A stretch of 64,000 nt of DNA from a virus, in IMG/VR virus record IMGVR_UViG_3300017917_003859, positions 32,001-96,000 of that record; one strand, 5' to 3'. The stretch's first letter is position 1; every line of letters starts with the position of its first letter. The notes under the pieces were generated by a model. The model worked only from the letters and a program-made list of their open reading frames with translations, was not told where the DNA came from and did not search any database. A program made the position numbers and the translations under genes. Below are positions 2,908 through 30,747 of the stretch, piece after piece.

Positions 2908-4767
2908 ATGGCGGATACGAATATATTTAATAGATTAAAACGATTATTTTCCACAGATGTTATTATCAGAAATGATGGTGGAAATCAGGTTAAGGTAATG
3001 GATGTTAATTCCATTCAACGTAGTGGTGAATATCAAACTAATTCTTTAAATGATAGATTTACTAGAATTTATTCTCAAAACGCTACATCTCTTTATGGTC
3101 AACAATTAAATGTTAACTACCAGTATTTAAGAGCCCAATTATATTCAGATTATGATGTTATGGATACAGACGCTATTGTAGCATCTGCTTTAGATATTAT
3201 TTCTGATGAATGTACTTTAAAAAACGAAATGGGAGAAATACTCCAAATTCGTAGTTCTGATGAAGATCTTCAAAAAATTCTTTATAATTTATTTTATGAT
3301 GTTTTAAATATTGAATTTAATCTTTGGTCATGGACTAGACAAATGTGTAAATATGGTGACTTTTTCTTAAAACTAGAAATAGCAGAAAAATTTGGTGTAT
3401 ATAATGTAATACCTTATACTGCATACCATATAATGCGTCAAGAAAACTATGACCCAAATTTACCCGCAGCAGTAAGATTTAGATTTAGTCCTGATGGTTA
3501 TGTAGGTGGTACAGGACAATATTTTGTTCCTAATCAATATTCCAAAACAGAAAACGGAATATATTTTGATAATTACGAAATGGCTCATTTCCGTTTATTA
3601 ACTGATGTAAACTATTTACCATATGGCCGTTCTTATATAGAACCAGCTCGTAAATTATTTAAACAATACACATTAATGGAGGATGCTATGTTAATTCATA
3701 GAATATCTAGAGCACCAGAAAAACGTGTTTTTTATATCAATGTAGGTTCTATTCCTCCTAATGAAGTGGAGAATTTCATGCAAAAAACTATTAATACCAT
3801 GAAAAAAACTCCATACATAGATCAACAAACTGGTGAATATAATCTTAAGTATAACATGCAAAATATGTTAGAAGATTTTTATATTCCTGTTCGTGGTAAT
3901 GACACAACTACTAAAATTGAAACTACTAAAGGTTTAGAGTATAATGGTATTGAAGATGTTAATTATTTAAGAGATAAATTGTTTGCTGCACTTAAAATAC
4001 CTAAAGCTTTTATGGGTTATGAGAAAGATTTAAGTGGTAAAGCAACATTAGCTGCTGAAGATATTCGTTTTGCTCGCACTATTGATAGAATCCAGCGTAT
4101 TATGTTGTCTGAGTTGTATAAAATTGCTTTAGTACATTTGTATACTCAAGGATATAAAGGAGAATCTTTAACAAATTTTGAACTTTCATTAACTACTCCA
4201 TCAATTATATACGATCAAGAACGTATTGCTTTAATGAAAGAAAAGGTTGATTTAGCCAAAAACATAATGGAGGCCCAATTATTACCCACAGATTGGATTT
4301 ATCACAATATCTTCCACTTCAGTGAAGATCAATTCGATGAATACAGAGATTTAATTTTACAAGATTCTAAACGTAAATTCCGTTTATCTCAAATAGTTGA
4401 AGAAGGAAATGATCCATTAGAAACTGGCCGTTCATATGGTACTCCACATGATTTAGCATCATTGTATGGTAAAGGTAGAACTATGTCAGATCCAGGAAAT
4501 GTTCCTGATGGGTATAATGGAGATGTTAAATTAGGTAGACCTTTTGAAAAAGTATCTAATATTAATACACAACAAAACGCATTTGGTAGAGATAGATTAG
4601 GTAAAAAAGATATGAAAATAGATGATCAACCTGATTATAATTCTAAATCATTAAATGAAAATTATTTAAAAAATAAACAATTTTTAAATGAAATTGAAAA
4701 AAAATTGGTTTTTACTACAGATAAATCAAAAGAATCATTACTTGATGAAAATCAATTGAAAGACTAA
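2908..4767 (+). CDS. Portal protein (T4 gp20-like)
   Basis: LMEDAMLIHRISRAPEKRVFYINVG, MLEDFYIPVRG and YLRDKLFAALKIP are gp20-family signatures; follows terL. Confidence 0.95.
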   Translation: MADTNIFNRLKRLFSTDVIIRNDGGNQVKVMDVNSIQRSGEYQTNSLNDRFTRIYSQNATSLYGQQLNVNYQYLRAQLYSDYDVMDTDAIVASALDIISDECTLKNEMGEILQIRSSDEDLQKILYNLFYDVLNIEFNLWSWTRQMCKYGDFFLKLEIAEKFGVYNVIPYTAYHIMRQENYDPNLPAAVRFRFSPDGYVGGTGQYFVPNQYSKTENGIYFDNYEMAHFRLLTDVNYLPYGRSYIEPARKLFKQYTLMEDAMLIHRISRAPEKRVFYINVGSIPPNEVENFMQKTINTMKKTPYIDQQTGEYNLKYNMQNMLEDFYIPVRGNDTTTKIETTKGLEYNGIEDVNYLRDKLFAALKIPKAFMGYEKDLSGKATLAAEDIRFARTIDRIQRIMLSELYKIALVHLYTQGYKGESLTNFELSLTTPSIIYDQERIALMKEKVDLAKNIMEAQLLPTDWIYHNIFHFSEDQFDEYRDLILQDSKRKFRLSQIVEEGNDPLETGRSYGTPHDLASLYGKGRTMSDPGNVPDGYNGDVKLGRPFEKVSNINTQQNAFGRDRLGKKDMKIDDQPDYNSKSLNENYLKNKQFLNEIEKKLVFTTDKSKESLLDENQLKD

Positions 4768-4779
4768 TATATTCCTATA

Positions 4780-4787
4780 TATTTATA
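4780..4787 (+). promoter_or_regulatory. Representative late-type promoter motif TATTTATA
   Basis: Exact copies at 4780, 11727, 12409, 17346, 21812, 24504, 26803, 27051, 36563, 44091, 49071, 53394, 62132; variants at 8773, 30708, 32511, 33098, 34216, 59593; mostly shortly before start codons. Confidence 0.7.
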
Positions 4788-4802
4788 ATAAAACCTGTAT
4801 AG

Positions 4803-5663
4803 ATGTTAATAAAACATTCAAAATTTAAAAACACCAGTATATTATTTGAGTTACTAGTAAGACAAATAACAACTGATACTTTATCTGGTAAAAATTCAGA
4901 AGCAACTGATATACTAAAAAAATATTTTAGTAAAACTGAATTGGGTCGTGAATATAAATTATATGAAACTTTACTTAAACGTACTAATTTATCTGAAGGT
5001 AAAGCTGAAATAATAATCAATACTGTACTTGAAGGTGCTAAACAATTAAATAAATCAGCACTTAAACGACAAAAATATAATTTAATTAAAGAAATTAAAA
5101 ATCATTATGATTTAGAAAAATTCTTTAAAACTAAATTACCCCACTATAAGACACAGGCTGCTATATATAATTTATTAGAATCAATAGACCGCAAACCTTT
5201 ACTTACTGAACAAATTATTTCAAATAAAATAACAATTTTAGAACATTTAACTTCAACCTCAACTGAAAAAAATAAAGAAAAAGCTCCTGAAGTAATAAAT
5301 GAATTTACTAAATTTGATAAGGGAACTCGCAATTTAGCTTATAAAATTTTATTAGAAAAATTTAATGAAAAATATTCTAATTTTACTAACAATCAAAAAT
5401 TAATTTTAAAAGAATTTATCAATAGTGTAGATAATAATGCTAAATTAAAAGAATTTTATAATATTAAAATTAATGAAATAAAGAAAGATTTAATTTTATT
5501 AAATAAAACTACTTCTAATAAAGTTACTAAAATTAAAATTAATGAAATAGTTAATTTATTAGTTGAATTAAATAAAACTGATAAAGTAAGTAATGATCAT
5601 ATGATTAATTTACTTCAATATTGTGATTTAATTGAAGAATTAAAAAAAATAAATGGAAAGTAA
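4803..5663 (+). CDS. Basic helical head-module protein, function unknown
   Basis: 286-aa ORF between portal and protease, preceded by TATTTATA at 4780. Confidence 0.6.
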   Translation: MLIKHSKFKNTSILFELLVRQITTDTLSGKNSEATDILKKYFSKTELGREYKLYETLLKRTNLSEGKAEIIINTVLEGAKQLNKSALKRQKYNLIKEIKNHYDLEKFFKTKLPHYKTQAAIYNLLESIDRKPLLTEQIISNKITILEHLTSTSTEKNKEKAPEVINEFTKFDKGTRNLAYKILLEKFNEKYSNFTNNQKLILKEFINSVDNNAKLKEFYNIKINEIKKDLILLNKTTSNKVTKIKINEIVNLLVELNKTDKVSNDHMINLLQYCDLIEELKKINGK

Positions 5664-6441
5664 TAACCCAAATACCCCTAAATTTACCGTTGATCCTGAA
5701 ACTGGAAAAGTAGATTATGGTATTTATCATAATTTAATTAAAGTTTGGAAAGAATTTCTTATTTTTTATAGAGATACTTTTTTAAAAAACGAAAATGTTT
5801 TAGATAAAAATGATCCTAAATTTAATGAGATATTTAATGATTCTAAAAAACTTTATAATAAATTTATTAGTCATTTAAAATCTAATTATCCAAAAGATTA
5901 CGAAAATATAAAACTTATCATCAGTAAACAAATTAAAGAAATTATACAAGCTTCTTTAAAAGAAATGAGTGCTACAGGTGCAGGTTCAGGAGCAGCAACT
6001 TTCACTCCAGGCACTGGTGCTCAATATGCTACACCGTATGCTTTTAATCCAAATAAAAAAGCAAAAGGAGCTCAAAATATTTACTATTATAAACTGGGAT
6101 GGAAACCAGTACCTGCTGAAGAATTACATAAACAATCTAAAGTTATAGACCATAAAGATTTATGGAAGAAAAAATTAAAAGAATCTAGTGAATCTTCTCA
6201 ATCATATTTAAATACATTAAATTTACAAGATCCATCTTTAAAACAGTTTGTAGAAACTCGAGTTACGGATTTTGATAAAATAGAAGATAAATTAAATACT
6301 TTACTCCCATTGTTAAAAGATGCTAAAAAAGAAACAATGGAATATTATAAAAATAATCCTGAATTTAAAATAAAATATGGGACTGATTTAGCATTAGATT
6401 ATTTAAATGACCTAATAACATTATTTAAAGAGAAAAAATGA
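5653..6441 (+). CDS. Putative prohead core/internal protein with LKE-delimited segments
   Basis: Head-module position; KQIKEIIQASLKE and KKLKE junctions separate dissimilar segments. Confidence 0.55.
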   Translation: MESNNPNTPKFTVDPETGKVDYGIYHNLIKVWKEFLIFYRDTFLKNENVLDKNDPKFNEIFNDSKKLYNKFISHLKSNYPKDYENIKLIISKQIKEIIQASLKEMSATGAGSGAATFTPGTGAQYATPYAFNPNKKAKGAQNIYYYKLGWKPVPAEELHKQSKVIDHKDLWKKKLKESSESSQSYLNTLNLQDPSLKQFVETRVTDFDKIEDKLNTLLPLLKDAKKETMEYYKNNPEFKIKYGTDLALDYLNDLITLFKEKK

Positions 6442-8075
6442 AAACATTACAAGAACACTACAACGCTATCAAATCCGGAAAAGGCGGAAATAAAACTCAA
6501 TTTTTAAAACACGCACGTCAACTTTTCCCAGAATATATCAATCAATATTTTGATTTTGATACAGCAACTAACGTATTAAAATCTAAACAAATTATTAGTG
6601 AAGCAGCAGCTGGTGGTGTTGTTTCTAAAGGATTTGATATTTTTGATTGGAAAAAGATTTTAGCTGAAGAAGTAAAATCAATAGAAAAAGAAACATCTAA
6701 AGAAGTTACAGATAAGCAATCACATTCATATGATAATAAAGATATGAAAAATGCTGACAATATTAACTTTAATGAAATCATGAAAGGTTTTTATTGTGAA
6801 TTACGCAATGAAAAAAATGCTGGTAAAACAGGTGATGAATTAAAAGATATTGTAGTTAAAAATTTAGCTAAAGATCCTTTATATTATACTAAAAATGGTG
6901 AATTTGGAACTGAAGGTGTAGGATACACTGATGAAGCTCCAGGTTTAGGTAAGCCCAAAGAACCAAAAGGCAAACATAAATCCTCAGGATATGGTGATCT
7001 AGATACTGATAAAAAAGAAGAGAAAGTAAAGTCAAATGTTCAAGACTCATTAGGTGATAAAGAAGCAAAAACTTCAATGCCTAAAAAAGTTAAAGAAATG
7101 CCTGTAGCTCCTCAAAACGCTTCTGGTGTTAAAAAAATGGCTATGCCTGGCAAAGAAAAAAAAATTAAATTAAAGGAAGGATTTGAATATTCATTTAGTG
7201 AATATGATTTTGAGATTCCTGATAATATGAAAGAATATATTAAAACTAAAATTAAAACCAAATTTCCTGATATATCTGATAAAAGTATTGACTCATATAT
7301 AGAAAATACTGAAAACTACTATTATTCTGAAGCTCGAAAAGAAAATAAACGAGGCAGAGAATATCCATCTGTAAGCGCTGATGATATAGTAGATTTGATT
7401 ATTGCTTATATTGAAGATATAGAATTAAAGGAAGGTATAGGAATGTTTCATGACCCTATAGGATATAAAAAACCTGAATTAAGTGATATAGATAAAATGT
7501 TCACTAAAGAGTATAAAGGTAATGGCATGTATGTGATTTATAAAAATGATAAAGAAGTCAAAACTATTGAAGGTGAAGGTAATGCTAATGCTTGGATAAA
7601 TAATGAAAAAAGAAAATTAAAAGAATCACTTAACGAAAATATCAATAAAAAATATACTCATTTTGCTATCCGTAAATCAGATGGTAAAATAGTAGAAGGA
7701 TGGGAAACAGTAAGTGATGTTGAAAGCTTAAAATATTATGCTAAGATGGATCTTAAAGATATATTTCCTGATTCTAAATTATCTGAATTTGTTATTGTTT
7801 CTAAAAAAGGATTAGAAAAAAAAGGAATTGATCCATTTGATTACAAAAATTGGTATTGGTATAAAAGTGGTGATTCTGTAAATGAAAATGAAGATGTTTA
7901 TCAACAACTTGAAGATCTTCAAAATGAATTAACAAAAGAAAAAGATCCTGAACGTAAAGCTGAACTTGAAAAAAAGATCAAAGCTTTAGAAGCAGGATTA
8001 AAAGAAAATATAAATGTTGGAGAATCAAAACTTCGTTCTATAATTCGTAATATTATTAAAGAAGAATTAAAATAA
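6438..8075 (+). CDS. Putative prohead core/internal polyprotein
   Basis: Directly upstream of protease; starts MKTLQE; several LKE/LNE/VNE junctions; ends KLRSIIRNIIKEELK. Confidence 0.6.
   Translation: MKTLQEHYNAIKSGKGGNKTQFLKHARQLFPEYINQYFDFDTATNVLKSKQIISEAAAGGVVSKGFDIFDWKKILAEEVKSIEKETSKEVTDKQSHSYDNKDMKNADNINFNEIMKGFYCELRNEKNAGKTGDELKDIVVKNLAKDPLYYTKNGEFGTEGVGYTDEAPGLGKPKEPKGKHKSSGYGDLDTDKKEEKVKSNVQDSLGDKEAKTSMPKKVKEMPVAPQNASGVKKMAMPGKEKKIKLKEGFEYSFSEYDFEIPDNMKEYIKTKIKTKFPDISDKSIDSYIENTENYYYSEARKENKRGREYPSVSADDIVDLIIAYIEDIELKEGIGMFHDPIGYKKPELSDIDKMFTKEYKGNGMYVIYKNDKEVKTIEGEGNANAWINNEKRKLKESLNENINKKYTHFAIRKSDGKIVEGWETVSDVESLKYYAKMDLKDIFPDSKLSEFVIVSKKGLEKKGIDPFDYKNWYWYKSGDSVNENEDVYQQLEDLQNELTKEKDPERKAELEKKIKALEAGLKENINVGESKLRSIIRNIIKEELK
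7168..7435 (+). repeat. 13-bp direct repeat AATTAAAGGAAGG bracketing an in-frame 255-bp module
   Basis: Copies at 7168-7180 and 7423-7435, both encoding LKEG; spacing 255 nt = 85 codons. Confidence 0.75.
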
Positions 8076-8076
8076 T

Positions 8077-8682
8077 ATGAAATCATTACTTATAGAAACC
8101 CGCCAATTTAATGTATCACCAATGGCACTTACCGAAGGTAAAAGTGTTGGTGGTAATCCATTAGTTGAAGGTATTTTAGCTACTTGTGAAGTAAAAAACG
8201 GAAACGGTAGATATTATGCTAAAGATTTGTGGGAACGTGAAATTGATAAATACATGACTTTAGTTAAAGAAAGACGTGCTTGTGGTGAATTAGATCATCC
8301 TGATTCTCAAGTAATTAACTTAAAAAATGTATCACACAATATCAATAGTATTTGGTGGGATGGTGATAATATTATGGGTAAAATCGAAATTTTACCTACC
8401 CCATCAGGAAATATATTAAAAGCATTAATCGAATCGGGTATTAAAGTTGGTGTATCAAGTCGTGGGATGGGTAGCCTAAAACAAGTAGGTGAAGTATTAG
8501 AAGTACAAGATGACTTTGAATTATTATGTTGGGATTTTGTAAGTACACCTTCAAATCAAGGATCATGGATGACTTCTATTCATGAAGGAATGTCTACTCC
8601 AATTAATTCAAATCCATATTCTAGAGTTAATTCAATAATAACCGAGATTCTATGTGCAAATGGATCTTGTCCTATAATTTAA
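8077..8682 (+). CDS. Prohead core protease (T4 gp21-like)
   Basis: KNGNGRYY, GELDHP, ILPTPSG, GVSSRGMGS and WDFVSTPS are gp21-family motifs. Confidence 0.95.
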   Translation: MKSLLIETRQFNVSPMALTEGKSVGGNPLVEGILATCEVKNGNGRYYAKDLWEREIDKYMTLVKERRACGELDHPDSQVINLKNVSHNINSIWWDGDNIMGKIEILPTPSGNILKALIESGIKVGVSSRGMGSLKQVGEVLEVQDDFELLCWDFVSTPSNQGSWMTSIHEGMSTPINSNPYSRVNSIITEILCANGSCPII

Positions 8683-8710
8683 CCACTCTTAAAATAGTAT
8701 TTTAAGATCG

Positions 8711-8740
8711 AGGCGCTTCAAAAAGAAGCGCCTTTCTTTT
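8711..8740 (+). terminator. Intrinsic terminator after protease
   Basis: AGGCGCTTC-AAAAA-GAAGCGCCT followed by TTCTTTT. Confidence 0.85.
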
Positions 8741-8772
8741 TCTATTCTTGCGACTTTGAATAGATACATACA

Positions 8773-8885
8773 TACGTATATTAGAATGTGCCCAATTCTA
8801 TGAGGCATTGTGAATTATAAATTTTATTACGCTTGAATTTATTTCGTATTAAGCGTATTTCCAACAATTAAAAATTAAGGAAAAA
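8773..8885 (+). promoter_or_regulatory. Late-type promoter variant (TACGTATA) and structured leader of scaffold/capsid operon
   Basis: TACGTATA at 8773-8780, then inverted repeats TGCC..GGCA and TACGCTT..AAGCGTA before ATG 8886. Confidence 0.5.
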
Positions 8886-9920
8886 ATGGCAACAAACAGA
8901 GATTTGCTTAAAGAAGCAATCGCAGATGCTAAAACTGTTAAAGAAACAGCTATAGCTAATGCAAAAGCTGCTTTAGAAGAAGCCTTCACTCCTTATCTCA
9001 AAGAAAAATTAGCAGCTAAATTATCAGAAATGGAAGAAGCTGAAAATGAAGAGATGATGAATGAAGAAACTTATGAAGCAGAAATGGATGAAGTTAAAAA
9101 ACCTTCAACTATGGACGAAGAAATTTCTTTGGATGAACTTTTAGCCGAATTAGAAGAAGAAGACACTATGGATGAAACCGGTCTTTATGAAGCTAAGAAG
9201 GAAGAAAAAGAAGAAGAAGAAATGTCTATTGAAGATATGTCTGAAGATGATTTAAAATCATTTATTGAAGATGTTATTAAAGACATGGTGGCTGCTGGGG
9301 AACTAGAAGCTGGTCATGAAGGTGAAGAGGGTGAAGAAGCAGAAGAAGAAGCTGAAATGGAACCTGCTGAAGGTGAAGAAGAAGCTGAAGAGTCTGAAGA
9401 AGAATTAGATGAAGAAGTTAATATTGATGAACTTCTATCTGAAGATTTAGAAGAAGAAATGGATGAAGTTAATTTAGATGAACTTTTAGCTGAGCTAGAA
9501 GAAACTGATTCTAAAAAAGAAGAAAAAGAACTTGATGAAGCTAAAGAAGAAGAATCAATGAAAAAAGATCTTGAAGAAGCTTATACTACAATCAAAACTC
9601 TTAAATCTGAACTTCAAGAAATTAACTTGTTAAATGCTAAACTTCTTTACACTAACAAGATTTTCCGTAATAAATCTTTAACCGAATCACAAAAAATTAA
9701 AGTTTTAACAGCATTCGATAAAGCTACATCTAAAAAAGAAGCTCAGTTGGTTTATGAAACTTTATTAGAGAATTTTAAAACATCAACTACTAAAAATCCT
9801 ATTAAAGAATCATTAAATCCAGCATCTAAAATTTTAGGAAATGTTCAAGCAAAACCAATTATCGAATCAAATGATGCGTTCGCTCGTATGCGCGAATTAG
9901 CTGGGTTACATAAAAAATAA
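8886..9920 (+). CDS. Prohead scaffolding/core protein (gp22-like)
   Basis: Very acidic helical protein between protease and capsid gene; three E(I/V)x(L/I)DELL repeats; many L/M-x-E sites. Confidence 0.85.
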   Translation: MATNRDLLKEAIADAKTVKETAIANAKAALEEAFTPYLKEKLAAKLSEMEEAENEEMMNEETYEAEMDEVKKPSTMDEEISLDELLAELEEEDTMDETGLYEAKKEEKEEEEMSIEDMSEDDLKSFIEDVIKDMVAAGELEAGHEGEEGEEAEEEAEMEPAEGEEEAEESEEELDEEVNIDELLSEDLEEEMDEVNLDELLAELEETDSKKEEKELDEAKEEESMKKDLEEAYTTIKTLKSELQEINLLNAKLLYTNKIFRNKSLTESQKIKVLTAFDKATSKKEAQLVYETLLENFKTSTTKNPIKESLNPASKILGNVQAKPIIESNDAFARMRELAGLHKK

Positions 9921-9961
9921 TAAAAACAATTAAAAACTAAAAACAAAAACAATTAAAAACA

Positions 9962-11677
9962 ATGAGTTCAATTCAAACATTATTAGAATCAGCTAACCCA
10001 TGGAAATCACTTCAAAGTGATGCTGCTAAGTTAGCTACTAAATGGTCTAAAACAGGATTATTAGAGCATTTAGGAAATGACGTGGATAAAAATAACATGT
10101 CAATCTTATTAGAAAACCAAGCAAAACAGTTAGTAGTAGAAGCTAGCTCAACTGGTGCTGGTGCAACTGCAGGTACTTTTACTGTAGGTCAATCTGAAAA
10201 CTGGGCAGGTATTGCTTTACCATTAGTACGTAAAGTATTTGGTCAAATCGCTGCAAAAGAATTTGTTAGCGTTCAACCAATGAACTTACCTTCAGGTCTA
10301 GTGTTTTTCTTAGATTTCCAATACGGAACTAGCAAAAACCCATTCTCTTCAGGTGATTCACTTTATGGTACTCGTAGCGCAACTGGTCAGTTTCCATTCT
10401 CTACTACTGATACAACTGGTGGTTTATATGGTGCAGGTCGTTTTGCTTATTCAACTAACCAATTCTCAGCTTCAGTATTTATTACTGGTTCTGCTAACGG
10501 TGGTACTTTACCAGTTGTTGGTCCTGGAACAGGTTCAATTGTAACAGCTTCTTGGTCTGACTTAAACTTTGACGCTAATTACTCTGCTTCAGTAATTGCT
10601 AATGGAATTTACAAAGTTACTGTTCCTACAGCTTCTGGAGTATTATCTAACTTTGATCCAGATGGAGTTCGTGCGTTTGTTTTAACTACTGGTTCTTGGG
10701 CTACTGTAGCTAATTCTTTACCAGCATTTACATCTTACAACTACACTAACAACTCAATTACATTCTTTTTCACAGCTTCAGCTACATTAGCTGCTACTAT
10801 AGCTGGTGATAAAGCTGTAATTTATTACAATAAGATTACTGCTGATAACAATCGTGGTGATTTTGAAGATACAAGTTCTCCTTCATTCTCAGTTCCAAAT
10901 GCTGCTAGCGCTACAGCAATTTCTATCCCAGAAATCAATATCAAGATGCAATCTCAAGCTATCACTGCTAAAACTAAAAAGTTAAAAGCTGTATGGACTC
11001 CTGAATTTGCTCAAGATTTAAACGCTTATCAGAACATTGATGCTGAAGCTGAATTAACTAACATCATGAGTGAATATATTTCAATGGAAATTGATCTTGA
11101 AATTCTTGATATGTTAATCGAAGATGCTTCTGCAGCTACTGAATATTGGACAGTTCAAAATAACATCGCTTTAGGTGCTAGTGGTATTACTAATAGTAAC
11201 TTAGGTTTCTATAACACTCAAGGTGGTTGGTTCCAAACTCTTGGTACTAAAATGCAAAAAGTAAGTAACAAGATTCACCAATTAACTCTTCGTGGTGGTG
11301 CAAATTTCTTAGTATGTTCTCCAACAGTTGCTACTGTATTAGAATCAATCCCAGGATTTGCTGCTAACACTAATGGTGATGCTGCTAACATGGAATATGC
11401 AATGGGTGTTCAGAAAGTAGGTCAAATCAATAACCGTTACACAGTTTATAAGAACCCTTATATGACTGAAAACGTAATTTTGATGGGCTTCCGCGGTAAA
11501 CAATTCCTTGAATCAGGTGCTGTTTTCGCTCCATACATTCCGTTAATTATGACTCCTCTAGTGTACGATCCAAATACCTTCACTCCACGTAAAGGTTTAA
11601 TGACTCGTTACGCTAAGAAGATGTTACGTCCAGAATTTTATGGACGCATCTACGTGTCAGGTCTAAATACACTTTAA
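9962..11677 (+). CDS. Major capsid protein (T4 gp23-like)
   Basis: ILLENQ, LPLVRKVF, VSVQPMNLPSGLVF, KLKAVWTPEFAQDL, APYIPL, FTPRKGLMTRY signatures. Confidence 0.96.
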   Translation: MSSIQTLLESANPWKSLQSDAAKLATKWSKTGLLEHLGNDVDKNNMSILLENQAKQLVVEASSTGAGATAGTFTVGQSENWAGIALPLVRKVFGQIAAKEFVSVQPMNLPSGLVFFLDFQYGTSKNPFSSGDSLYGTRSATGQFPFSTTDTTGGLYGAGRFAYSTNQFSASVFITGSANGGTLPVVGPGTGSIVTASWSDLNFDANYSASVIANGIYKVTVPTASGVLSNFDPDGVRAFVLTTGSWATVANSLPAFTSYNYTNNSITFFFTASATLAATIAGDKAVIYYNKITADNNRGDFEDTSSPSFSVPNAASATAISIPEINIKMQSQAITAKTKKLKAVWTPEFAQDLNAYQNIDAEAELTNIMSEYISMEIDLEILDMLIEDASAATEYWTVQNNIALGASGITNSNLGFYNTQGGWFQTLGTKMQKVSNKIHQLTLRGGANFLVCSPTVATVLESIPGFAANTNGDAANMEYAMGVQKVGQINNRYTVYKNPYMTENVILMGFRGKQFLESGAVFAPYIPLIMTPLVYDPNTFTPRKGLMTRYAKKMLRPEFYGRIYVSGLNTL

Positions 11678-11757: not shown

Positions 11758-12339
11758 ATGAAACAATGTAAAAGATGCAGTGTAGAAAAACAATTAACAG
11801 AATTCTGTAATAGAAAAGGTGAAATAGATGGTAAACATCGATATTGTAAATCTTGTTTAAAAAAAGAAAATGATCAATGGTATCATACTACTAAACAAAA
11901 TAGATCAAATTATTATAAAGAATATCGCAAACAAAATAAAGAATATTTTAATAAATATTGCTATATTCACTATCATACAAATAAAGATTTATATAGAGAA
12001 TGGAATAAAAATAAATACCATTCAGACCCAATATTTAGAATAAAACATGTAACTTCTGCTCGCATATTTGAAGCTCTTAAAACTTATCAAACATTCAAAC
12101 GAGATCGTACTATAGAATATTTAGGATGTACTATAGAAAAATACACACAATATCTTGAATCTAAATTTACCTCAGAAATGAATTGGGAAAATTATGGAGT
12201 ATATTGGGAAATAGATCATATTAAACCTATAGATTCTTTTGATTTAAACATAGAAAAAAATTTATATGTTTGTTTTCATTATACCAATACTCAACCTTTA
12301 GAAAAAAGTCAAAATCGAAAAAAAAGTAATAATATATAA
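11758..12339 (+). CDS. HNH endonuclease with N-terminal CxxC pairs (free-standing homing-type)
   Basis: CKRC..CKSC, then WEIDHIKP...CFHYTNTQPL..N HNH motif; own TATTTATA at 11727. Confidence 0.85.
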   Translation: MKQCKRCSVEKQLTEFCNRKGEIDGKHRYCKSCLKKENDQWYHTTKQNRSNYYKEYRKQNKEYFNKYCYIHYHTNKDLYREWNKNKYHSDPIFRIKHVTSARIFEALKTYQTFKRDRTIEYLGCTIEKYTQYLESKFTSEMNWENYGVYWEIDHIKPIDSFDLNIEKNLYVCFHYTNTQPLEKSQNRKKSNNI

Positions 12340-13282: not shown

Positions 13283-15997
13283 ATGAAAAAATTATTTTTA
13301 AGTTTGATTATTGTATTGAGTTTCTCAATCTTTAATCTAAAAGCAGGTCATGGTATGCCTTTAGTAAATCCTTCATTCACTGTAGGAACAACTGGATTAA
13401 CCTTTACTGCAAGTTCAAATGCTGCTACTTGCGGTGGTGGCCCATATTGGTTACAAGTAGAATTACGTTGTACTTCTAGTCAATTAACCGGAACACCTCC
13501 TTCAACCATGCAAACCAACTTATTAAACTGGACAGGCCCAGGAGTAAATTATAATAGCTTTCCTTGGTTTAATTCTTTATTGAATGTTCCTAATTATACA
13601 TTCCCTACTTGGACTGATAATTGTACTACAGAGCCTTACAACTCCGTCTTTATATCTTTCACTGGATTATGTCCCGGACAAACATATTTCTTTTCAGCTC
13701 GTGAGTGGGTGAGTGGTACTAATTCTGTTGGTCCTTGGACAACACCTTCTTCTTTTGTAGTACCAGGTACATTTGTTCCATTAAATTTTAATGTAACTGC
13801 TTCACCTAGTATATTTTGTTCACCTGGATCTTCAACTTTAACTATAAGTAGTATAACTGGAGGATGCGGCCAGACAAACATTCAATGGTTACCTGGTGGT
13901 TCTACTTTAAATCCTATAGTTGTATCACCTGCTTCAACAACTAACTATACTGCTTTAGTTACTACTCCTTGTAATACTTTATCCAAAGTAATAACAGTAA
14001 CTGTAGTTCCAAACGTCAGTGCTGCCTTTACTCCCTTAAATACAAATACTTGCGCAGGAATTCCAGTACAATATAATCATACAGGAACAGCAGGTGTATC
14101 TCATATTTGGAGTGTTTTTCCTATTGGAGCTACTATTAGTAGTAATACAATTTCAAACCCATCAATAACCTTTAACAACCCAGGACTATACACTATTTCT
14201 CATACAGTATCTGTAGGAACTTGTAGTAATGTAGTTACAACAACTGCTAATATAACAGGAATAGGCGCATCATTTACATCTAGTAATCCAAATCAATGTT
14301 TACAAAATAATAGTTTTACATTTAATTCAACAGCTACTGTTGGTACACAGTCTTATACTTTTTCACCATCTATAGGTTCTCCACCATCAAGTAATACTCC
14401 AAATTATGGCCCTGTCAGCTTTACATCTCCAGGAACATATACTGTAACTTACTCAAATACTAATTCTGGATGTACTTCTTCAACGTATTCTGTGATTAAT
14501 ATTTATCCTACCCCAACACTAGCTGTCTCTAATAGTGGACCTGTTTGTGAAGGAAATAATATTAATTTAACTTTAACAACAACAGCTACTAGCTATAGTT
14601 GGACAGGTCCTAATGGTTTTACTTCTACATTACAAAATCCATCTATAACATCTACATCAGTAGCGAATTCAGGTACATACCAAATTAATGTAGCTAGTGT
14701 TAATAATTGTACTAATACTAGTAATACTAATGTTGTTATTAATCCTCCTCCTCAAATAACAGTAACTACTCCAACAGCATGCTCCGGAGGTTCTTTTTCT
14801 ATAAATTCTTTTGGAGGTATAAACTATACTTGGACTGGTCCTAATAGTTATACATCTAATTCACAAAATTTATTTTTTACAAATGCTAATTCAAATTTAA
14901 ATGGATTGTATACTGTGGTTGGCACTGATGTTAATGGTTGTATAGGAACCAATACTGTTTTAGTTAATGTTAATCCGTCATTCACTATAAGCATAAACAA
15001 CAATAGTCCAATATGTGCTGGTTCTGTATTACAACTTAACAGCCCTCCAGGATTTATATATAATTGGTCTGGTCCGAATGGATTTAGCTCAACACAGCAA
15101 ACACCACAACTAAGCAATGTATCATCACAAACTACAGGACAGTATTCGTTAAATGTTCAAGATAATAATGGATGTCAAGGTAGTGCTGTAACTAATGTTA
15201 TTGTTAATCCTTCACCTCAACTCAGTATTACCAACTCCAAAGATAAAATATGTACTCCAGCATGTGTTGATTTTACATTAAATGCTAGTTCTAGTTTAGC
15301 ATCTTTAATTTGGGAATTTATCAGTGGTGTATCTACAAATACAAATACTTCAACTCAATGTTATACTAAAGGAGGAATATACACATCAACAGCAACTGCT
15401 ACTGATGTAAATGGATGTATTAGTGTTATAACTCATAGTGTGGAAGTATATGATACACCAACTGCTGATTTTATTTTCTCACCTTTAAAACCTATCGAGA
15501 ATGAATATGTACAATTTTCTAATGCCTCTTACGGAGCACCATTAACTAGTATGATAAATGGATGGTATATAAATAATGAACTTACTTCATTTGCTAACAG
15601 TCCTCAAATAGCATTCCAATATCCTGGAGACTATCTTGTGACTTTAATAGTTTTAACTACTCATGGTTGTAGTGATACTATTTCTAAAATAGTAAATATA
15701 AAAGAAAATTATTATTTATGGGTACCAAATTCATTTACCCCAAATAATGATGGATTAAATGATACATTCCAGCCAAAAGGTCAAGGAATTGCTAAGTACG
15801 AGTTGATGGTGTTTGATCGTTGGGGTGAAATGATTTTTAAAACTAAGGAATTTAATCAAGGGTGGGATGGTAAACATCATAGAGGTATAGATTATGGTAT
15901 TTATTGTAAAGATGATGTATATACTTGGTTAATAAAAGTAACTGATGTTTTTGGTAAATCACATGAATTAAAAGGACATGTTACATTAATAAAATAA
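13283..15997 (+). CDS. Secreted Ig/PKD-repeat protein with T9SS type-B (gliding-motility-associated) C-terminal domain
   Basis: Sec signal peptide; three WxGPN Ig-like repeats; PKD-like FQYPGDYLVTL; C-terminal VPNSFTPNNDGLNDTF..VFDRWG..GWDG..KGHVTLIK. Confidence 0.9.
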   Translation: MKKLFLSLIIVLSFSIFNLKAGHGMPLVNPSFTVGTTGLTFTASSNAATCGGGPYWLQVELRCTSSQLTGTPPSTMQTNLLNWTGPGVNYNSFPWFNSLLNVPNYTFPTWTDNCTTEPYNSVFISFTGLCPGQTYFFSAREWVSGTNSVGPWTTPSSFVVPGTFVPLNFNVTASPSIFCSPGSSTLTISSITGGCGQTNIQWLPGGSTLNPIVVSPASTTNYTALVTTPCNTLSKVITVTVVPNVSAAFTPLNTNTCAGIPVQYNHTGTAGVSHIWSVFPIGATISSNTISNPSITFNNPGLYTISHTVSVGTCSNVVTTTANITGIGASFTSSNPNQCLQNNSFTFNSTATVGTQSYTFSPSIGSPPSSNTPNYGPVSFTSPGTYTVTYSNTNSGCTSSTYSVINIYPTPTLAVSNSGPVCEGNNINLTLTTTATSYSWTGPNGFTSTLQNPSITSTSVANSGTYQINVASVNNCTNTSNTNVVINPPPQITVTTPTACSGGSFSINSFGGINYTWTGPNSYTSNSQNLFFTNANSNLNGLYTVVGTDVNGCIGTNTVLVNVNPSFTISINNNSPICAGSVLQLNSPPGFIYNWSGPNGFSSTQQTPQLSNVSSQTTGQYSLNVQDNNGCQGSAVTNVIVNPSPQLSITNSKDKICTPACVDFTLNASSSLASLIWEFISGVSTNTNTSTQCYTKGGIYTSTATATDVNGCISVITHSVEVYDTPTADFIFSPLKPIENEYVQFSNASYGAPLTSMINGWYINNELTSFANSPQIAFQYPGDYLVTLIVLTTHGCSDTISKIVNIKENYYLWVPNSFTPNNDGLNDTFQPKGQGIAKYELMVFDRWGEMIFKTKEFNQGWDGKHHRGIDYGIYCKDDVYTWLIKVTDVFGKSHELKGHVTLIK

Positions 15998-17746: not shown

Positions 17747-20700
17747 TGTCAGATTGTATAGGTCCAATTAATATTACTCCTAACAACAATCAAATCAATT
17801 TACAGGATGTTAATAGAACAATCACAGTAATTGATAATAATTGTTGTACTCAGGTTGAAATAACACAACCCATTACTAATGTTATACAAGTACTTACAGG
17901 TCCTATGGGTCCTAAAGGGGAATTCCCCACCTCAGGATCTTTTAATCTTACTGGATCGATTAATGTAAGTGGAAGTATATCTGCTAATAATTTCAATGGA
18001 GGAACATTTAGTGGATCTTTTATAGGTAATTTTAGTGGTTCAGTTTCTTCTAATTTACAAGATGTAACTAATAATGGAAATGTAACTACATTACCTATTA
18101 CTGCTTCTAGTTTTTATGGAAATGGATTGCAAATTGTAGGAAATGCTATTATAACTGGTTCTTTAACTGTAAGTGGTTCAAATACTTTTAGAAATATAGG
18201 TCCCGCTGAATTTACAGGATCATTAGGTGTAAGTGGTTCAATAAATTTTAATAATAATTCAACTCTAATACCTGATTTATTTGGAGGTCCTGGTACTGTA
18301 GATTTAGTAGCAGGGCCCGGGGGATGGGCAGAATTAACTTCAAACAACACTCAATCTTTTATTTGGGTTGATGATAATGGAGCTTATGTAGGTACAAATT
18401 GGGATATTGGAAATTATTTATGGACATTTAATAATAGTGGTTCATTAATAGCTCCAGGTAGAATAGAAGCACCATCATTTACAGGTTCATTAGAAGGTAC
18501 TGCAAGTTATGCTATAACTGCATCCTATGCTTTAAATGTTCCCTTAACTTCATCTTATGCTATACAAGCATTAAGTAGTTCATATGCTGCAACTGCTTCA
18601 CTTGCCCCAGATTATTTACCTTTAACAGGTGGAACAATAAATGGAAATGTAATAGTTAATGGTACGGCATCTATTACTTATTTAAATGTTACTTATGAAT
18701 CTGCCTCTATTATTTATTCTTCTGGTTCAAATCAATTAGGTGATACAATAGATGATATTCAAACATTAATTGGAAAAGTTATTGTAAGTGGTAGTTTTGA
18801 AGTAACTGGAAGTACAAATATTCCTAATTTAACTGGTAGTTTATTTGGAACTGCTAGCTACTCAAATAACTCAGCTACTGCTTCAAATATATTAGGTGGA
18901 AAAGCACCCCATGTTCCCTTCTTTATCACTGATACTAGTTTAGCAACAAGCTCAATTTATCAATCTGGATCTAACACTATAATTATAAACCAAGATAATG
19001 CCACATCAGCAAATCCAGAAGCATTATATGTTTGGCAACCAAGTACAAGCTCATTTAATGTAATAAGTGGTAAAGGTAACTTAAATAACTATCTACAGCT
19101 TAATATTCAAAACACAAACCAAGGAACTGATGCCTCATCAGATGTAGTTGCAACCGCCAATAATGGTAGTGAAGTAGATAACTACATTGATATGGGTATT
19201 AATAATGAGAATTTTGCTGGATTTTTAGGAGGTCCAAATGATTCTTATGTGTATACTCATGGTCATAATTTTTGGATTGGAAATGTAAATGATGGATATA
19301 AATTATATTTCTTTAATAGCTCTAGTTTACAACCAATCATAACATTAAATGCTTTAGATGCTGAAGTTACTGGTTCTTTATTTGGTACTGCCTCTTGGGC
19401 TCAAAATGCTGTAACAGCATCAAATGTAAATACTGCATCTTATGCTTTAACAGCATCTTATGCCTTAAATGTACCAACAACTGCTTCATATGCAATAAGT
19501 TCTTCATATTCTATAACTGCTTCATATGCTTTAAATGCTTTAACTTCATCATATTCTATAAGTGCTTCACATGCTAATATATCTAATGATGCTTTAACAG
19601 CTACCAGTGCATCACATGCTTTAGTAGCAGATAATGCTTTAACAGCAAATTATGCTACAACAGCAGGTAATGGTGGAGTAACACAACTTATAGCAGGATC
19701 GGGTATTACATTATTACCTCCTGGAGGTCAAGGAGCAGTTACAATAGTATCAACTGGAGGTGGAGGTGTTACTATTATATCTGGCTCATTAATAACTGGT
19801 TCATTTATTAATACTACTAGTTATACTTTTAATCATAATTTAAATACTAGAACACCTATTATAACTGTATTTGATTCTAATTATAATCAAATTATACCTG
19901 AAAATATACAGTTAGTAGATAGTTCAAGTGCAATTATAACTTTTCCAACACAAGAAAGTGGATTTGCTATAGGATCAACCGGAGGCACAACCGGTACTGC
20001 TTTATCATCATCATATGCTTTATTTTCAACTTACGCTACTACAGCATCTTTCTATCAAGAAACAGATCCAATATTTACAGCTAAGAGTGCATCTTTAGCA
20101 ACAACAGGATCTAATATATTTAGAGGTAATCAAACGGTAACCGGAAGTCTATTCACAAGTGGCTCAAACACCTTAGTAGGAAACACAGTTTTAAGTGGCA
20201 GTATTAATATAAGTGGTTCTCAAACATTTAATGGTACCTCAGCTTTTTATGGTAACCATACATTGAGTGGTAGCAATACAATTACTGGAAATACTATTTT
20301 AAGTGGTAGTATTGAGGTAAGTGGTTCATCTAATTTTCATAATTCAAGTTTTATAGTAACAGGTTCAACTTCATTTTCTGGAAGTTTTAATGTTAAGGGA
20401 ACTTCTACATTCTCAGATACATCAATGACATTAACTGGTTCACTATTAGTAAGTGGATCTCAAATATTTAATGGTATAATAACAGTAACCGGATCTCAGT
20501 TTTTTAGTGGTTCTTCAAATATTAATGGAGCAGCTTCAATTACAGGCTCATTAAATGTAAGAGACGGAGACATTAATATAGTAAGTGGATCATCATTTAC
20601 AAGATGGGGTAATAAGTTATTTAACTACGGACAATTCTCAGATACTACAATACAAACAGGCTCAGCAAACACTGCGTATGCAATGAGATTTAATACAACA

Positions 20701-21075
20701 GATTTTGGATTAGGAGTAAGTTTAGTAAGTGGAAGTAGAATAACTGTAGAAAATACTGGAATATATAATTTACAATTTTCAGCTCAATTAGCTAACACTG
20801 CCAATACAACTATAGCAGTTGACATATGGTTTGCAATAACTGGAAGTAATGTACCTAATTCAAATACTCAAGTAAATATAACTAAAACCGCAGGTTCAAC
20901 TGGTAGAAACGTAGCAGCATGGAATTTTGCAACTCCTTTAAGTGCAAGCCAATATATAGAAATATATTGGAGTTGTGATGCCTCTACAGCACAAATACAA
21001 TCCGCCCCAACTGCAAGTACACCAACAAGACCAGCAATTCCATCAATAATAGCAACATTAACACAGATAGCATAA
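17746..21075 (+). CDS. Long tail fibre-like protein
   Basis: 1109 aa, Ser/Thr/Gly-rich, short GPMGPKG, TASYA repeats and many SGS/TGS beta repeats. Confidence 0.75.
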   Translation: MSDCIGPINITPNNNQINLQDVNRTITVIDNNCCTQVEITQPITNVIQVLTGPMGPKGEFPTSGSFNLTGSINVSGSISANNFNGGTFSGSFIGNFSGSVSSNLQDVTNNGNVTTLPITASSFYGNGLQIVGNAIITGSLTVSGSNTFRNIGPAEFTGSLGVSGSINFNNNSTLIPDLFGGPGTVDLVAGPGGWAELTSNNTQSFIWVDDNGAYVGTNWDIGNYLWTFNNSGSLIAPGRIEAPSFTGSLEGTASYAITASYALNVPLTSSYAIQALSSSYAATASLAPDYLPLTGGTINGNVIVNGTASITYLNVTYESASIIYSSGSNQLGDTIDDIQTLIGKVIVSGSFEVTGSTNIPNLTGSLFGTASYSNNSATASNILGGKAPHVPFFITDTSLATSSIYQSGSNTIIINQDNATSANPEALYVWQPSTSSFNVISGKGNLNNYLQLNIQNTNQGTDASSDVVATANNGSEVDNYIDMGINNENFAGFLGGPNDSYVYTHGHNFWIGNVNDGYKLYFFNSSSLQPIITLNALDAEVTGSLFGTASWAQNAVTASNVNTASYALTASYALNVPTTASYAISSSYSITASYALNALTSSYSISASHANISNDALTATSASHALVADNALTANYATTAGNGGVTQLIAGSGITLLPPGGQGAVTIVSTGGGGVTIISGSLITGSFINTTSYTFNHNLNTRTPIITVFDSNYNQIIPENIQLVDSSSAIITFPTQESGFAIGSTGGTTGTALSSSYALFSTYATTASFYQETDPIFTAKSASLATTGSNIFRGNQTVTGSLFTSGSNTLVGNTVLSGSINISGSQTFNGTSAFYGNHTLSGSNTITGNTILSGSIEVSGSSNFHNSSFIVTGSTSFSGSFNVKGTSTFSDTSMTLTGSLLVSGSQIFNGIITVTGSQFFSGSSNINGAASITGSLNVRDGDINIVSGSSFTRWGNKLFNYGQFSDTTIQTGSANTAYAMRFNTTDFGLGVSLVSGSRITVENTGIYNLQFSAQLANTANTTIAVDIWFAITGSNVPNSNTQVNITKTAGSTGRNVAAWNFATPLSASQYIEIYWSCDASTAQIQSAPTASTPTRPAIPSIIATLTQIA

Positions 21076-21076
21076 T

Positions 21077-21808
21077 ATGAAAATATTTCAACCTATAATA
21101 TCAGGATCATTAAGCGTTTCAGGTTCAGTTACAGCAATTGACTTTACTGGAAGTTTACGTGGTACTGCTTCTTATGCTATAACAGCCTCTTATGCTTTAA
21201 ATGGTGGAGGAGGTGGAGCATCATTCCCTTATACGGGTAGCGCAATTATAACTGGTAGTTTAATTGTAACTGGATCTACTACATCAACTTTAGGATTTAC
21301 AGGAAGTTTATATGGAACAGCAAGTTGGGCTAATAATTCAACTAGTGCTTCTTACGCTTTAAGCAGCTCTTATTCATTAACATCTTCATACGCATTAGTA
21401 GCAGATTCAGTTTTAGGTAGTGTTACTAGTGCTAGTTATGCTGCAACATCATCTTATAGTAATAATTTTACAGTAAATAGTACTATAACTATTGATCAAA
21501 CACTAACTGATTACGCCAGTGTGAATTCTAGTATAGTTGGTTCTAATAATCTATTTACACAAGCCACTGGCTCAAGAACCTCAGCTCATGGGAAATACAC
21601 TATATATAAAGGTGCAAATGCGAGAGCTGGAGAATTTATAACTGTATGGAATGGAACTACAGTAACATATACAGATGTTTCAACAACAGATATAGGAAAT
21701 ACAAGTGATATTACATTTCAATCATCAATTGTTGGAGGAAATATACAAATAGACATAGTTGCAGGCTCATCAGGTTGGACAATAAAAATGCTAACAATGT
21801 TTATTTAA
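21077..21808 (+). CDS. Short fibre-like virion protein
   Basis: Shares FTGSLxGTASYA and FPYTGSA blocks with neighbouring fibre genes. Confidence 0.7.
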   Translation: MKIFQPIISGSLSVSGSVTAIDFTGSLRGTASYAITASYALNGGGGGASFPYTGSAIITGSLIVTGSTTSTLGFTGSLYGTASWANNSTSASYALSSSYSLTSSYALVADSVLGSVTSASYAATSSYSNNFTVNSTITIDQTLTDYASVNSSIVGSNNLFTQATGSRTSAHGKYTIYKGANARAGEFITVWNGTTVTYTDVSTTDIGNTSDITFQSSIVGGNIQIDIVAGSSGWTIKMLTMFI

Positions 21809-21811
21809 GCA

Positions 21812-21848
21812 TATTTATAATAAATTAGTTGGATAGGGAAAACTAAAC
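21812..21848 (+). promoter_or_regulatory. TATTTATA promoter plus hairpin immediately before the 21849 start
   Basis: TTAGTT(21825-30)-GGATAGGGAA-AACTAA(21841-46), 2 nt before ATG. Confidence 0.45.
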
Positions 21849-26744: not shown

Positions 26745-26813
26745 TAGTTAATTAGAATACTCTTAGACTAAAAGTCTACATATTTGTAATAAAAATATAT
26801 TATATTTATAAAC

Positions 26814-27023
26814 ATGAAAACACTAATTTATTTTAATGCACCCGATAAACCTGAAAATATGGGTATTAGTCAATTAACAGACGATGTTCAAACCTTTTTA
26901 GACGAACGTTCAGACATTCTTATCAATCCAGTAATTACAGGAAATATTCTTGAATTTGAAAATGTTGAAGGTATAAAAGGATATGCTGTAATGGCTGATA
27001 CTCCTGATGATTTCCAAAACTAA
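26814..27023 (+). CDS. Small hypothetical protein, possible fibre chaperone
   Basis: 69-aa ORF with own TATTTATA at 26803, after the fibre genes. Confidence 0.5.
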   Translation: MKTLIYFNAPDKPENMGISQLTDDVQTFLDERSDILINPVITGNILEFENVEGIKGYAVMADTPDDFQN

Positions 27024-27072
27024 TTAAGACAATTAGAATTAATTTTGGTATATTTATAATAAAATATACTCT

Positions 27073-30395: not shown

Positions 30396-30437
30396 TTTAA
30401 ACTTGATTTTTTAAAAAAATATATTATAATAAAGATT

Positions 30438-30689
30438 ATGGAAAAAAAATTTTTAACTCTCGAAGAATTAAATGGTTTAAAAAAGATTAATGAAGATAAT
30501 CAAAATCTTGTTGTATCTTATGGTCAAATTGAATACCAAATCCAATTATTAAAAGTTCAAAAACAAAATTTAAATGAACAATTAAAGATTAATAAAAATT
30601 CTGAAATAGAATTTTTTAAAGAACTTGAAACTAAATATGGAATTATGAATATTAATTTAGAGACAGGAGAGATCACCCCAGTTAATTAA
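30438..30689 (+). CDS. Small coiled-coil hypothetical protein
   Basis: 83-aa heptad-rich ORF ending KYG..INLETGEI. Confidence 0.6.
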   Translation: MEKKFLTLEELNGLKKINEDNQNLVVSYGQIEYQIQLLKVQKQNLNEQLKINKNSEIEFFKELETKYGIMNINLETGEITPVN

Positions 30690-30747
30690 TTTTGAGCCCT
30701 TTCTAGATATTTATTGACAACAATAAACAATTAAATATTTTAGAAAA

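Follow-up and report, generated by a model that had tools for sequence, protein, structure and literature searches.

The stretch analysed here (the window) comprises 64,000 nucleotides (nt), positions 32,001 to 96,000 of the virus record IMGVR_UViG_3300017917_003859, and belongs to the 155 kb genome (30% G+C) of a T4-like freshwater phage. Pfam and PHROG searches of the open reading frames (ORFs) in the window located a T4-type head module at 2908-11677. In this module a gp20-type portal gene (PF07230) is followed by two ORFs without family, the gene of a 545-amino acid (aa) protein that is the target of this study, an S77 prohead protease, an acidic scaffold and a gp23-type capsid protein. 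The target ORF overlaps with its start the stop of the upstream ORF, and its own stop lies 1 nt before the protease ATG. Since the T4 gene order is 20-67-68-21-22-23, the target occupies the gp68 position.

6438-8075, + strand: target gene, candidate head-cargo polyprotein, 545 aa plus stop
8077-8682, + strand: S77 prohead protease of the T4 gp21 type (PF03420, E = 1.7e-29), presumed cutter of the joints

When the protease was aligned with T4 gp21 (5JBL), the His of GELDHP and the Ser of GVSSRG fell on positions that are Ala in the crystallised chain. We take these two residues to be the catalytic ones of the S77 family. The first-pass annotation, made from the DNA letters without database searches, had named this gene as a protease adjacent to its proposed polyprotein; a gp21-type enzyme with His and Ser retained at the T4 gp21 catalytic positions agrees with that.

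Modular anatomy of the 545-aa protein

The target was divided into the following parts (pLDDT, predicted local distance difference test; pI, isoelectric point; an arrow marks a predicted cut).

6438-6602, + strand: N-terminal unit, aa 1-55, three helices, ending in I-S-E55 (pLDDT 86-93)
6603-6950, + strand: conserved central domain, aa 56-171, disordered at 57-101 and helical at 103-155
6951-7178, + strand: Lys/Pro-rich disordered linker, aa 172-247, pI 9.8, ending in K-L-K-E247 (pLDDT below 50)
7168-7180, + strand: left copy of the 13-nt direct repeat AATTAAAGGAAGG, encoding (K)LKE↓G
7179-7433, + strand: module B, aa 248-332, helical and acidic, between the 13-nt repeat copies
7423-7435, + strand: right copy of the 13-nt direct repeat AATTAAAGGAAGG, encoding (E)LKE↓G
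7434-7625, + strand: module C, aa 333-396 (GIGMFHDP...KLKE), small beta-sheet plus helix (pLDDT 92-96)
7626-7637, + strand: spacer S-L-N-E, aa 397-400, between two predicted cut sites
7638-7886, + strand: module E, aa 401-483 (NINKKYTHF...SVNE), alpha/beta
7887-8006, + strand: module F, aa 484-523 (NEDVYQQL...GLKE), helix
8007-8072, + strand: C-terminal spacer and amphipathic tag S-K-L-R-S-I-I-R-N-I-I-K-E↓E-L-K, aa 524-545

The ORF begins MKTLQE and finishes KLRSIIRNIIKEELK, the joints read KLKE↓G, ELKE↓G, KLKE↓SLNE↓NIN, SVNE↓N and GLKE↓NIN, and the two copies of AATTAAAGGAAGG are exact, in-frame with each other and 255 nt apart; all these features had been listed by the first-pass annotation and were found where it had placed them. 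Glutamates of [LI]xE motifs stand at aa 6, 55, 77, 247, 332, 396, 400, 420, 450, 523 and 542, with an additional VNE at 481-483. Pfam and PHROG searches detected no peptidase family in the target or in ten long relatives.

The AlphaFold model of the target (63-row alignment) resembled beads on a string, with a predicted template modelling (pTM) score of 0.26. Confident separate units covered residues 1-55, 250-332, 345-400 and 481-545, units of moderate confidence 103-155 and 405-455, and the disordered stretches (57-101, 172-248, 334-344 and 455-481) lay at or beside joints. According to the model the modules fold independently, so that the single fold that would have spoken against the chain of unrelated modules in the first-pass annotation was not observed.

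Neither Pfam nor PHROGs assigned the target to a family, and for the ten long relatives they returned only weak TPR and DUF5661 matches and a sub-threshold ParBc_2 match. With tblastn against phage records, a hypothetical protein of Flavobacterium phage immuto was the only match. Foldseek searches with the full model gave only uncharacterised relatives among viral models and nothing at E below 0.6 in the PDB, the wide VIA-align search matched only a generic helical hairpin at 474-545, and the ESM Atlas search with module C yielded nothing but hypothetical viral proteins; that the folds are new does not follow from these absences. Homology to gp67 or gp68 was rejected after hhalign of the family alignment (probability 0.08% against gp68 and 0.47% against gp67).

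Module turnover at conserved joints

A search of 5.8 billion proteins produced 1444 matches, the best 120 of which were compared. These homologues are 306-749 aa long; their residues 1-247 are 70-83% identical and the remainder is a mosaic. The breakpoints of ungapped BLAST alignments in these 120 were modal at q247-250, q328 (start), q397, q481 and q521-524, positions that correspond in the target sequence to E247, E332, E396, E483 and E523. Across 177 relatives, the share of distinct contexts with a hard alignment end at -1 to +3 of an [LIVM]xE glutamate was 35%, against 14% for random positions, and for alignment starts the values were 38% and 19%, with the reservation that these contexts are not independent events. 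Residues 1-171 were matched by 641 cluster representatives (clustered at 50% identity), many of which carry inserts after about aa 75.

Conservation of the joints was then counted by anchoring on neighbouring conserved residues, so that the motif was not imposed.

End of the N-terminal unit: I/L-x-E55 in 172 of 172 anchored homologues
End of the linker: L-x-E, with x = Q, K, E, N or I, in 153 of 164, the other cases being mis-anchored
End of the tag: I/V-x-E in 169 of 169 occurrences, 69 terminal and 100 internal

At these three joints residues 1 and 3 are fixed and the middle is free, which is the pattern predicted by the gp21 rule of cleavage after L/I-x-E (PMC9026906). The linkage to the protease gene is strict. 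Across 74 IMG/VR loci the target homologue ranged from 251 to 935 aa, and the protease adjoined it in 60 of the 60 loci showing both, mostly with a gap of 2-13 bp and otherwise of up to 248 bp.

In the shortest forms (251 aa, e.g. L024) the N-terminal part and the linker are followed by K-L-Q-E and then directly by the tag; the constant frame thus consists of carrier plus tag, and the modules are inserts. Between linker and tag, or after the tag, 0 to about 10 modules occur, typically of 40-80 aa and in a few cases of 150-300 aa, each ending in [L/I/V]-x-E. By single-linkage clustering the 177 proteins yielded at least about 40 clusters of modules (median length about 60 aa), and 15 of these clusters had a single member; the count is rough, as tags chain clusters together. 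Module C was found in many polyproteins, and module F often stands directly after the linker.

Closely related genes revealed recent gains, losses and replacements of modules.

L063 versus L064: 65-aa module, 12-nt direct repeat TAAATGAAATAG encoding LNE↓I, 97% identity outside the insert
L063 versus L062: 58-aa module, 10-nt repeat, 95% identity outside the insert
L029 versus L013: 53 aa inserted after ILAE↓ in the N-terminal part, 9-nt imperfect repeat, 97% identity outside the insert
L039 versus L038: 356-aa insert with tag-coding DNA on both sides, 57-nt repeat at 91% identity, flanks 98% identical
L008/L010, L005/L006 and L009/L017: different terminal modules, diverging at or right after the tag, 99.4-99.7% identity up to the tag

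Module B has the same anatomy as these recent indels, namely 85 aa between two 13-nt joint-coding repeats. Among the 177 polyproteins it is present only in the source phage, and relatives such as L056 pass from the linker straight to module C. As read from the sequences, turnover of modules is in-frame, takes place at the joints and is very fast. The orthologues are not colinear, and when they were aligned modules were gained and lost exactly at LxE joints, as expected from the first-pass annotation. Its further proposal, swapping by recombination at the DNA that encodes the cleavage sites, gained support from the indels in 95-97% identical genes, bracketed by 10-12-nt LNE repeats, and from the 356-aa insert, bracketed by the 57-nt tag-coding repeat.

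That the target is an ordinary fast-evolving hypothetical protein without modular logic, its pattern being due to chance, might be argued from the number of LxE motifs and the 13-nt repeat, both of which are unremarkable individually. We regard this as very improbable. The [LIVM]xE enrichment across the 177 relatives already contradicts it, and so do the concentration of breakpoints at five glutamates, the indels exactly at joints, the beads-on-a-string model and the recurrence of the same modules in other architectures.

Free-standing modules and candidate address tags

Free-standing copies of the modules were sought with residues 248-545 among shorter proteins, and their genomic context was viewed through IMG/VR loci only. 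Module C occurred behind at least three kinds of N-terminal leader (tagged genes P0122, P0123, P0126, P0130 and P0131), including M-K-L-T-K-T-Q-L-K-Q-I-I-K-E↓ and M-N-K-E-T-L-R-M-Q-.-L-S-G-V-I-T-E↓. Tagged homologues of module B (P0133-P0139) start with M-K-K-S-E-L-R-Q-I-I-K-E↓ or M-.-D-F-D-L-R-K-Y-L-A-E↓N-K-L-I-K-E↓. All these leaders end in [LIV]xE immediately before the module. The same modules exist outside the polyprotein, in small genes with leaders that place LxE at the boundary seen in the polyprotein. The free-standing form of module E (P0129) has no leader. The second of the module B leaders, a third leader type, precedes the module in the metagenomic proteins P0133 and P0135-P0139, and a shortened version, L-.-E↓N-K-L-.-K-E↓, recurs between the modules of small polyproteins; for P0138 no viral locus was found in IMG/VR.

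A free-standing form is present in the source phage itself. P0104, P0079 and P0083, polyproteins of other phages, have a terminal module that comes after the tag, and residues 28-132 of the source-phage ORF at genome positions 123350-123748 (outside the window) match this module with 61% identity. The 287-aa module of L039 likewise belongs to a free-standing family (379 matches). The leaders of its members are unrelated to one another, and in every case [LIV]xE stands immediately ahead of a conserved D-E..D start. The model of this module (pLDDT 87, pTM 0.85) had ParB/Srx superfamily proteins in all of its top 21 structural rows, with modest scores (Foldseek E = 0.02-0.1; over residues about 50-160, Z 3.5-5.2). 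The family has PTQNE and DGHHRW as invariant motifs, and the module is probably a ParB/Srx-type domain; its sequence gave no match in the PDB. Polyvalent proteins packaged in heads are known to include ParB-type domains in their cargo (PMC5512222).

In the source genome a full KLRS-type copy of the tag is present nowhere but at the C-terminus of the target. The pattern h..hh[KRQ]E was detected 23 times in the source proteome, in 12 cases at the extreme N-terminus, where 1.2 were expected, and 11 of these 12 starts (e.g. M-K-K-S-E-L-R-Q-I-I-K-E-E) are the same kind of sequence as the target tag.

62154-62795: tag-starting ORF inside the window
Genome 3-368, 14823-15266, 19829-21256, 21633-22007, 22007-22870: tag-starting ORFs outside the window
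Genome 26486-27448, 30136-30975, 99725-100162, 106662-107210, 122765-123292: further tag-starting ORFs outside the window

The DNA of the target tag shares 50-62% nucleotide identity with the N-terminal copies, so it is the peptide that is conserved and not the DNA. Recent intragenomic recombination between tag copies was rejected on the same figure. In the IMG/VR loci 134 ORFs with unrelated bodies start with MK[ILK][TS]K.QLKQIIKE↓E, an abundance that is partly by construction because the loci were fetched with tagged queries. Tag-headed genes often form tandem arrays of 4-6 small unrelated genes, resembling in this respect the T4 internal-protein genes, which share one targeting sequence.

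L181, 5001-6119: tandem array
L188, 2686-4645: tandem array
L149, 3598-5999: tandem array

No paper containing the tag strings was found in the literature.

As to the N-terminus, MKTLQE was rejected as a genome-shared tag, since no other ORF of the source genome starts with it. The T4 targeting sequence is MKTYQEFIAE, consistent with the residue roles described in the T4 review, and the likeness of MKTLQE to it is limited to five of six residues. Position 6 varies among the homologues (LQE, LQD, LQT, LQQ), and MKTLQEHYNA contains no I/L-x-E at residues 8-10, the first invariant site being I/L-x-E55. Hence the suggestion of the first-pass annotation that MKTLQE is a capsid-targeting sequence of the T4 type is not supported (PMC9026906), and we do not count it as one. 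Better candidates for addressing are the 55-aa unit ending in I/L-x-E55, a candidate long leader that in P0121 is fused straight to module C, and the KLRSxIxxIIKE tag.

Proposed carrier and cargo, and competing explanations

The anatomy of the protein is modular, its joints conserve L and E and not x, and its gene is strictly linked to that of the protease. We consider it probable that the target is a capsid-loaded carrier-plus-cargo polyprotein, cut in trans by the adjacent protease into exchangeable cargo; loading, cutting and ejection are the steps that we infer. The carrier would comprise the 55-aa unit, the central domain, the Lys/Pro-rich linker and the tag KLRSxIxxIIKE. The polyprotein would join the prohead core during assembly, with the N-terminal unit and/or the tag as its address, and the S77 protease would then cleave each exposed joint, freeing the modules as separate small proteins that remain inside the head until they leave with the DNA. 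Short (10-13 nt) and longer (about 57 nt) DNA repeats arise because joints and tags encode nearly the same peptide, and recombination at these repeats would remove, insert or swap modules while frame and cut sites stay intact. The interpretation given in the first-pass annotation is partly supported overall.

Targeting peptides load foreign proteins into T4 heads, and the T4 protein Alt has propeptides at both termini (PMC9026906). Several points nevertheless weigh against the carrier-plus-cargo reading. The tag is C-terminal or internal in the polyprotein, whereas the proven T4 targeting sequences are all N-terminal, and one of the 12 N-terminal tag-like ORFs is the terminase, which is not head-internal and has to be counted as a false positive. 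The modules of the target had no recognisable function in family or fold searches, and no virion proteome of the source phage or a relative was found in the literature. Sites inside folded modules (IVE420 and LSE450) would need protection from cleavage, and the left boundary of the L039 insert is T-K-E, a non-canonical site. The target contains 11 [LI]xE motifs versus 7.5 expected (z = 1.4, rank 34 of 161 ORFs), which is the chance level, and conserved joints could persist merely as recombination-friendly linkers. Motif density was rejected as evidence on this z value. The 13-nt repeat was rejected as stand-alone evidence too, an exact repeat of at least 13 nt being present in 61% of codon-shuffled versions of the target gene. 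With both the count and the repeat individually at chance, the signal of the joints comes from their position.

These chance-level values would suit an uncut multidomain virion protein, in which the [LIV]xE joints are helical linker ends kept as microhomology for shuffling and the adjacency of the protease is coincidental. The joints clearly act as recombination points, and in phage N4 the polyvalent virion RNA polymerase is packaged without being processed (PMC5512222). We find such a protein improbable all the same, because fixed L/I and E around a free middle residue at three joints are the signature of the L/I-x-E rule and not of nucleotide homology. Moreover, the copies of the tag DNA in the source genome are only 50-62% identical despite the conserved peptide, and the free-standing homologues keep [LIV]xE exactly before the module despite unrelated leaders.

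The genomic position raises another alternative. Like the target, gp67 and gp68 of T4 lie between portal and protease; they are protease substrates, as the target is predicted to be, and the target could be a disposable accessory of the prohead core or scaffold, the pieces of which are expelled before packaging, the modules being filler or size-tuning spacers without a role in the next host. In T4 the core proteins are cleaved to numerous fragments, which exit the head (PMC9026906), the target stands at the gp68 position directly upstream of the protease, and the most LxE-enriched proteins of the genome are the ORF at 4803-5663 and the scaffold, as expected of core proteins that are chopped. 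Yet gp67 and gp68 (80 and 141 aa) are not modular, and neither has detectable similarity to the target (hhalign probability below 1%). The modules are small domains that are unrelated to one another and modelled with confident folds; they also recur as separate genes that bring their own leaders, and a ParB/Srx-type domain is carried by one relative. In addition, module content differs between 97-99% identical genomes, which fits conflict-driven genes better than assembly parts. A disposable core accessory is therefore unlikely, and the carrier-plus-cargo polyprotein remains our preferred reading.

More tentatively, the polyprotein may be a plug-in cargo rack, the swappable cargos of which would be shared with tagged free-standing genes and give aquatic T4-like phages a quickly reshuffled arsenal of ready-made injected proteins, probably for counter-defence. 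As each joint encodes both a cut site and a recombination handle, any small protein could click in or out, and cargos would move between the rack and genes of their own, headed by the address tag in N-terminal form. Such an arrangement would be the capsid-delivery analogue of an integron cassette array.

The textbook example of proteins injected together with phage DNA is the set of three internal proteins of T4, one of which blocks a restriction enzyme. Their loading through a capsid targeting sequence was reportedly demonstrated by Mullaney and Black in 1996. IPI, IPII, IPIII and Alt are loaded via this sequence and processed by gp21 (PMC9026906, PMC3012670). Like the target modules, the T4 internal proteins are small, diverse and fast-changing. 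As proposed for the target, a short peptide with the L/I-x-E motif of the S77 protease at its end directs them to the core, and the shared peptide provides a common handle for gene exchange; in T4 this peptide, of about 10 residues and N-terminal, is both needed and enough for loading. The propeptides at both ends of Alt are a further likeness. The source phage also encodes what processing of the T4 type requires, an S77 prohead protease with the aligned His and Ser. In T4, however, each cargo has its own gene with one N-terminal 10-residue tag, whereas the target family holds up to about 10 cargos in one frame at the gp68 position, with a C-terminal or internal tag and a conserved N-terminal unit of 55 aa instead of a 10-mer. 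Beyond M-K-T-x-Q-E there is no sequence similarity to the T4 internal proteins or the T4 tag, and no homology to IPI, IPII, IPIII or Alt was found with Pfam, PHROG or tblastn against phage records.

Polyvalent proteins combine two to fifteen unrelated domains per polypeptide and are encoded in a virion-gene context (Iyer et al. 2017, PMC5512222). The target shares with them several unrelated domains (at least five separately folding units according to the model) and the location among virion genes; the predicted co-delivery with DNA and proteolytic splitting into functional units resemble the reading proposed here, and ParB-type domains are among their cargo. Of domains with conflict-related activities, the relatives of the target gave the probable ParB/Srx-type domain of L039 and otherwise weak TPR and DUF5661 matches; the modules of the target itself match nothing. 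Polyvalent proteins differ in having an embedded zincin-like peptidase of their own and large enzymatic domains, whereas the target family lacks a peptidase domain, its modules are mostly of 40-80 aa without known fold, and cutting would fall to the prohead protease, a separate protein that acts at a three-residue motif.

In the giant phages phiKZ, 201phi2-1 and SPN3US, gp21-like proteases process a large number of internal head proteins behind the Glu of short motifs, frequently at several positions, and their long N-terminal propeptides are thought to target these proteins into the prohead, again resembling what is proposed for the target (PMC5694885, PMC10052503). These are single cargos with a propeptide and not combinatorial chains, and module shuffling at cut sites is not described for them.

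No published description of polyproteins of the target type was found in the literature. If the carrier-plus-cargo reading is correct, a large group of uncultured aquatic T4-like phages has made the T4 internal-protein idea combinatorial: dozens of small modules would be loaded as one chain, cut apart by the head protease and exchanged faster than point mutations build up. Hundreds of small 'dark matter' folds would then become candidate factors of early host takeover or counter-defence. The order of leader or joint, then [LIV]xE, then cargo would offer a simple annotation rule for virion-delivered proteins in metagenomes, and the tags and joints would be natural means for putting foreign proteins into phage heads.

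Neighbouring genes of the head module

8886-9920, + strand: acidic scaffold at the gp22 position, rich in [LI]xE (22 sites versus 12.9 expected, z = 3.2), which bears on the specificity of the protease
9962-11677, + strand: gp23-type major capsid protein (PF07068), predicted maturation site L-V-V-E60↓A

Across related loci the capsid protein is conserved up to V-x-E60 and variable afterwards, a boundary that follows the same logic as the polyprotein joints. Among cultured phages the closest is Flavobacterium phage immuto: its capsid protein is 57% identical, its gene order is the same, and its homologue of the target (gene 199) has 360 aa; the nearest relatives of the source phage in collections share only about 80-87% DNA identity.

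The protease at 8077-8682 starts M-K-S-L-L-I-E7 and contains I-T-E near its C-terminus. According to the T4 review, gp21 has an L-I-E site at residue 9 and undergoes C-terminal self-processing. Given this resemblance, the protease may process itself likewise.

The ORF just after the portal (4803-5663, + strand, 286 aa) has the highest [LI]xE excess in the genome (16 versus 6 expected, z = 4.9), is conserved in immuto (gene 197) and is probably a core protein that the protease would chop into small pieces. The following ORF (5653-6441, + strand, 262 aa) contains S-L-K-E↓M-S-A-T-G-A-G-S-G-A-A-T-F-T-P-G, a stretch resembling V-V-E↓A-S-S-T-G-A-G-A-T-A-G-T-F-T-V-G, the N-terminus predicted for the mature capsid protein; in immuto the counterpart of this part is encoded separately, by a 73-aa gene that starts like a tag.

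The scaffold C-terminus (9890-9920) ends A-R-M-R-E-L-A-G-L-H-K-K. A motif like R-M-Q-K-L-A-G is the N-terminal leader of a free-standing cargo ORF and the C-terminus of a different ORF (genome 123350-123748 and 30136-30975), and a large modular family with LxE joints (loci L085-L128) starts M-.-.-E-.-L-R-M-Q-M-L-A-G-V-I-T-E↓. Motifs of the type R-M-Q-.-L-A-G may represent a second, coat-binding address. In L062 and L066 the insert at about aa 75-95 of the target homologue contains P-S-P-K-Q-D-Y-E-I-A-F-K-K-F, which resembles K-T-D-Y-E-M-A-F-E-H-F, conserved in the other modular leader family.

Finally, an HNH/endonuclease VII-like ORF (11758-12339, + strand) lies between the capsid gene and PhoH, and may be a mobile insertion, since immuto has different genes at this place.

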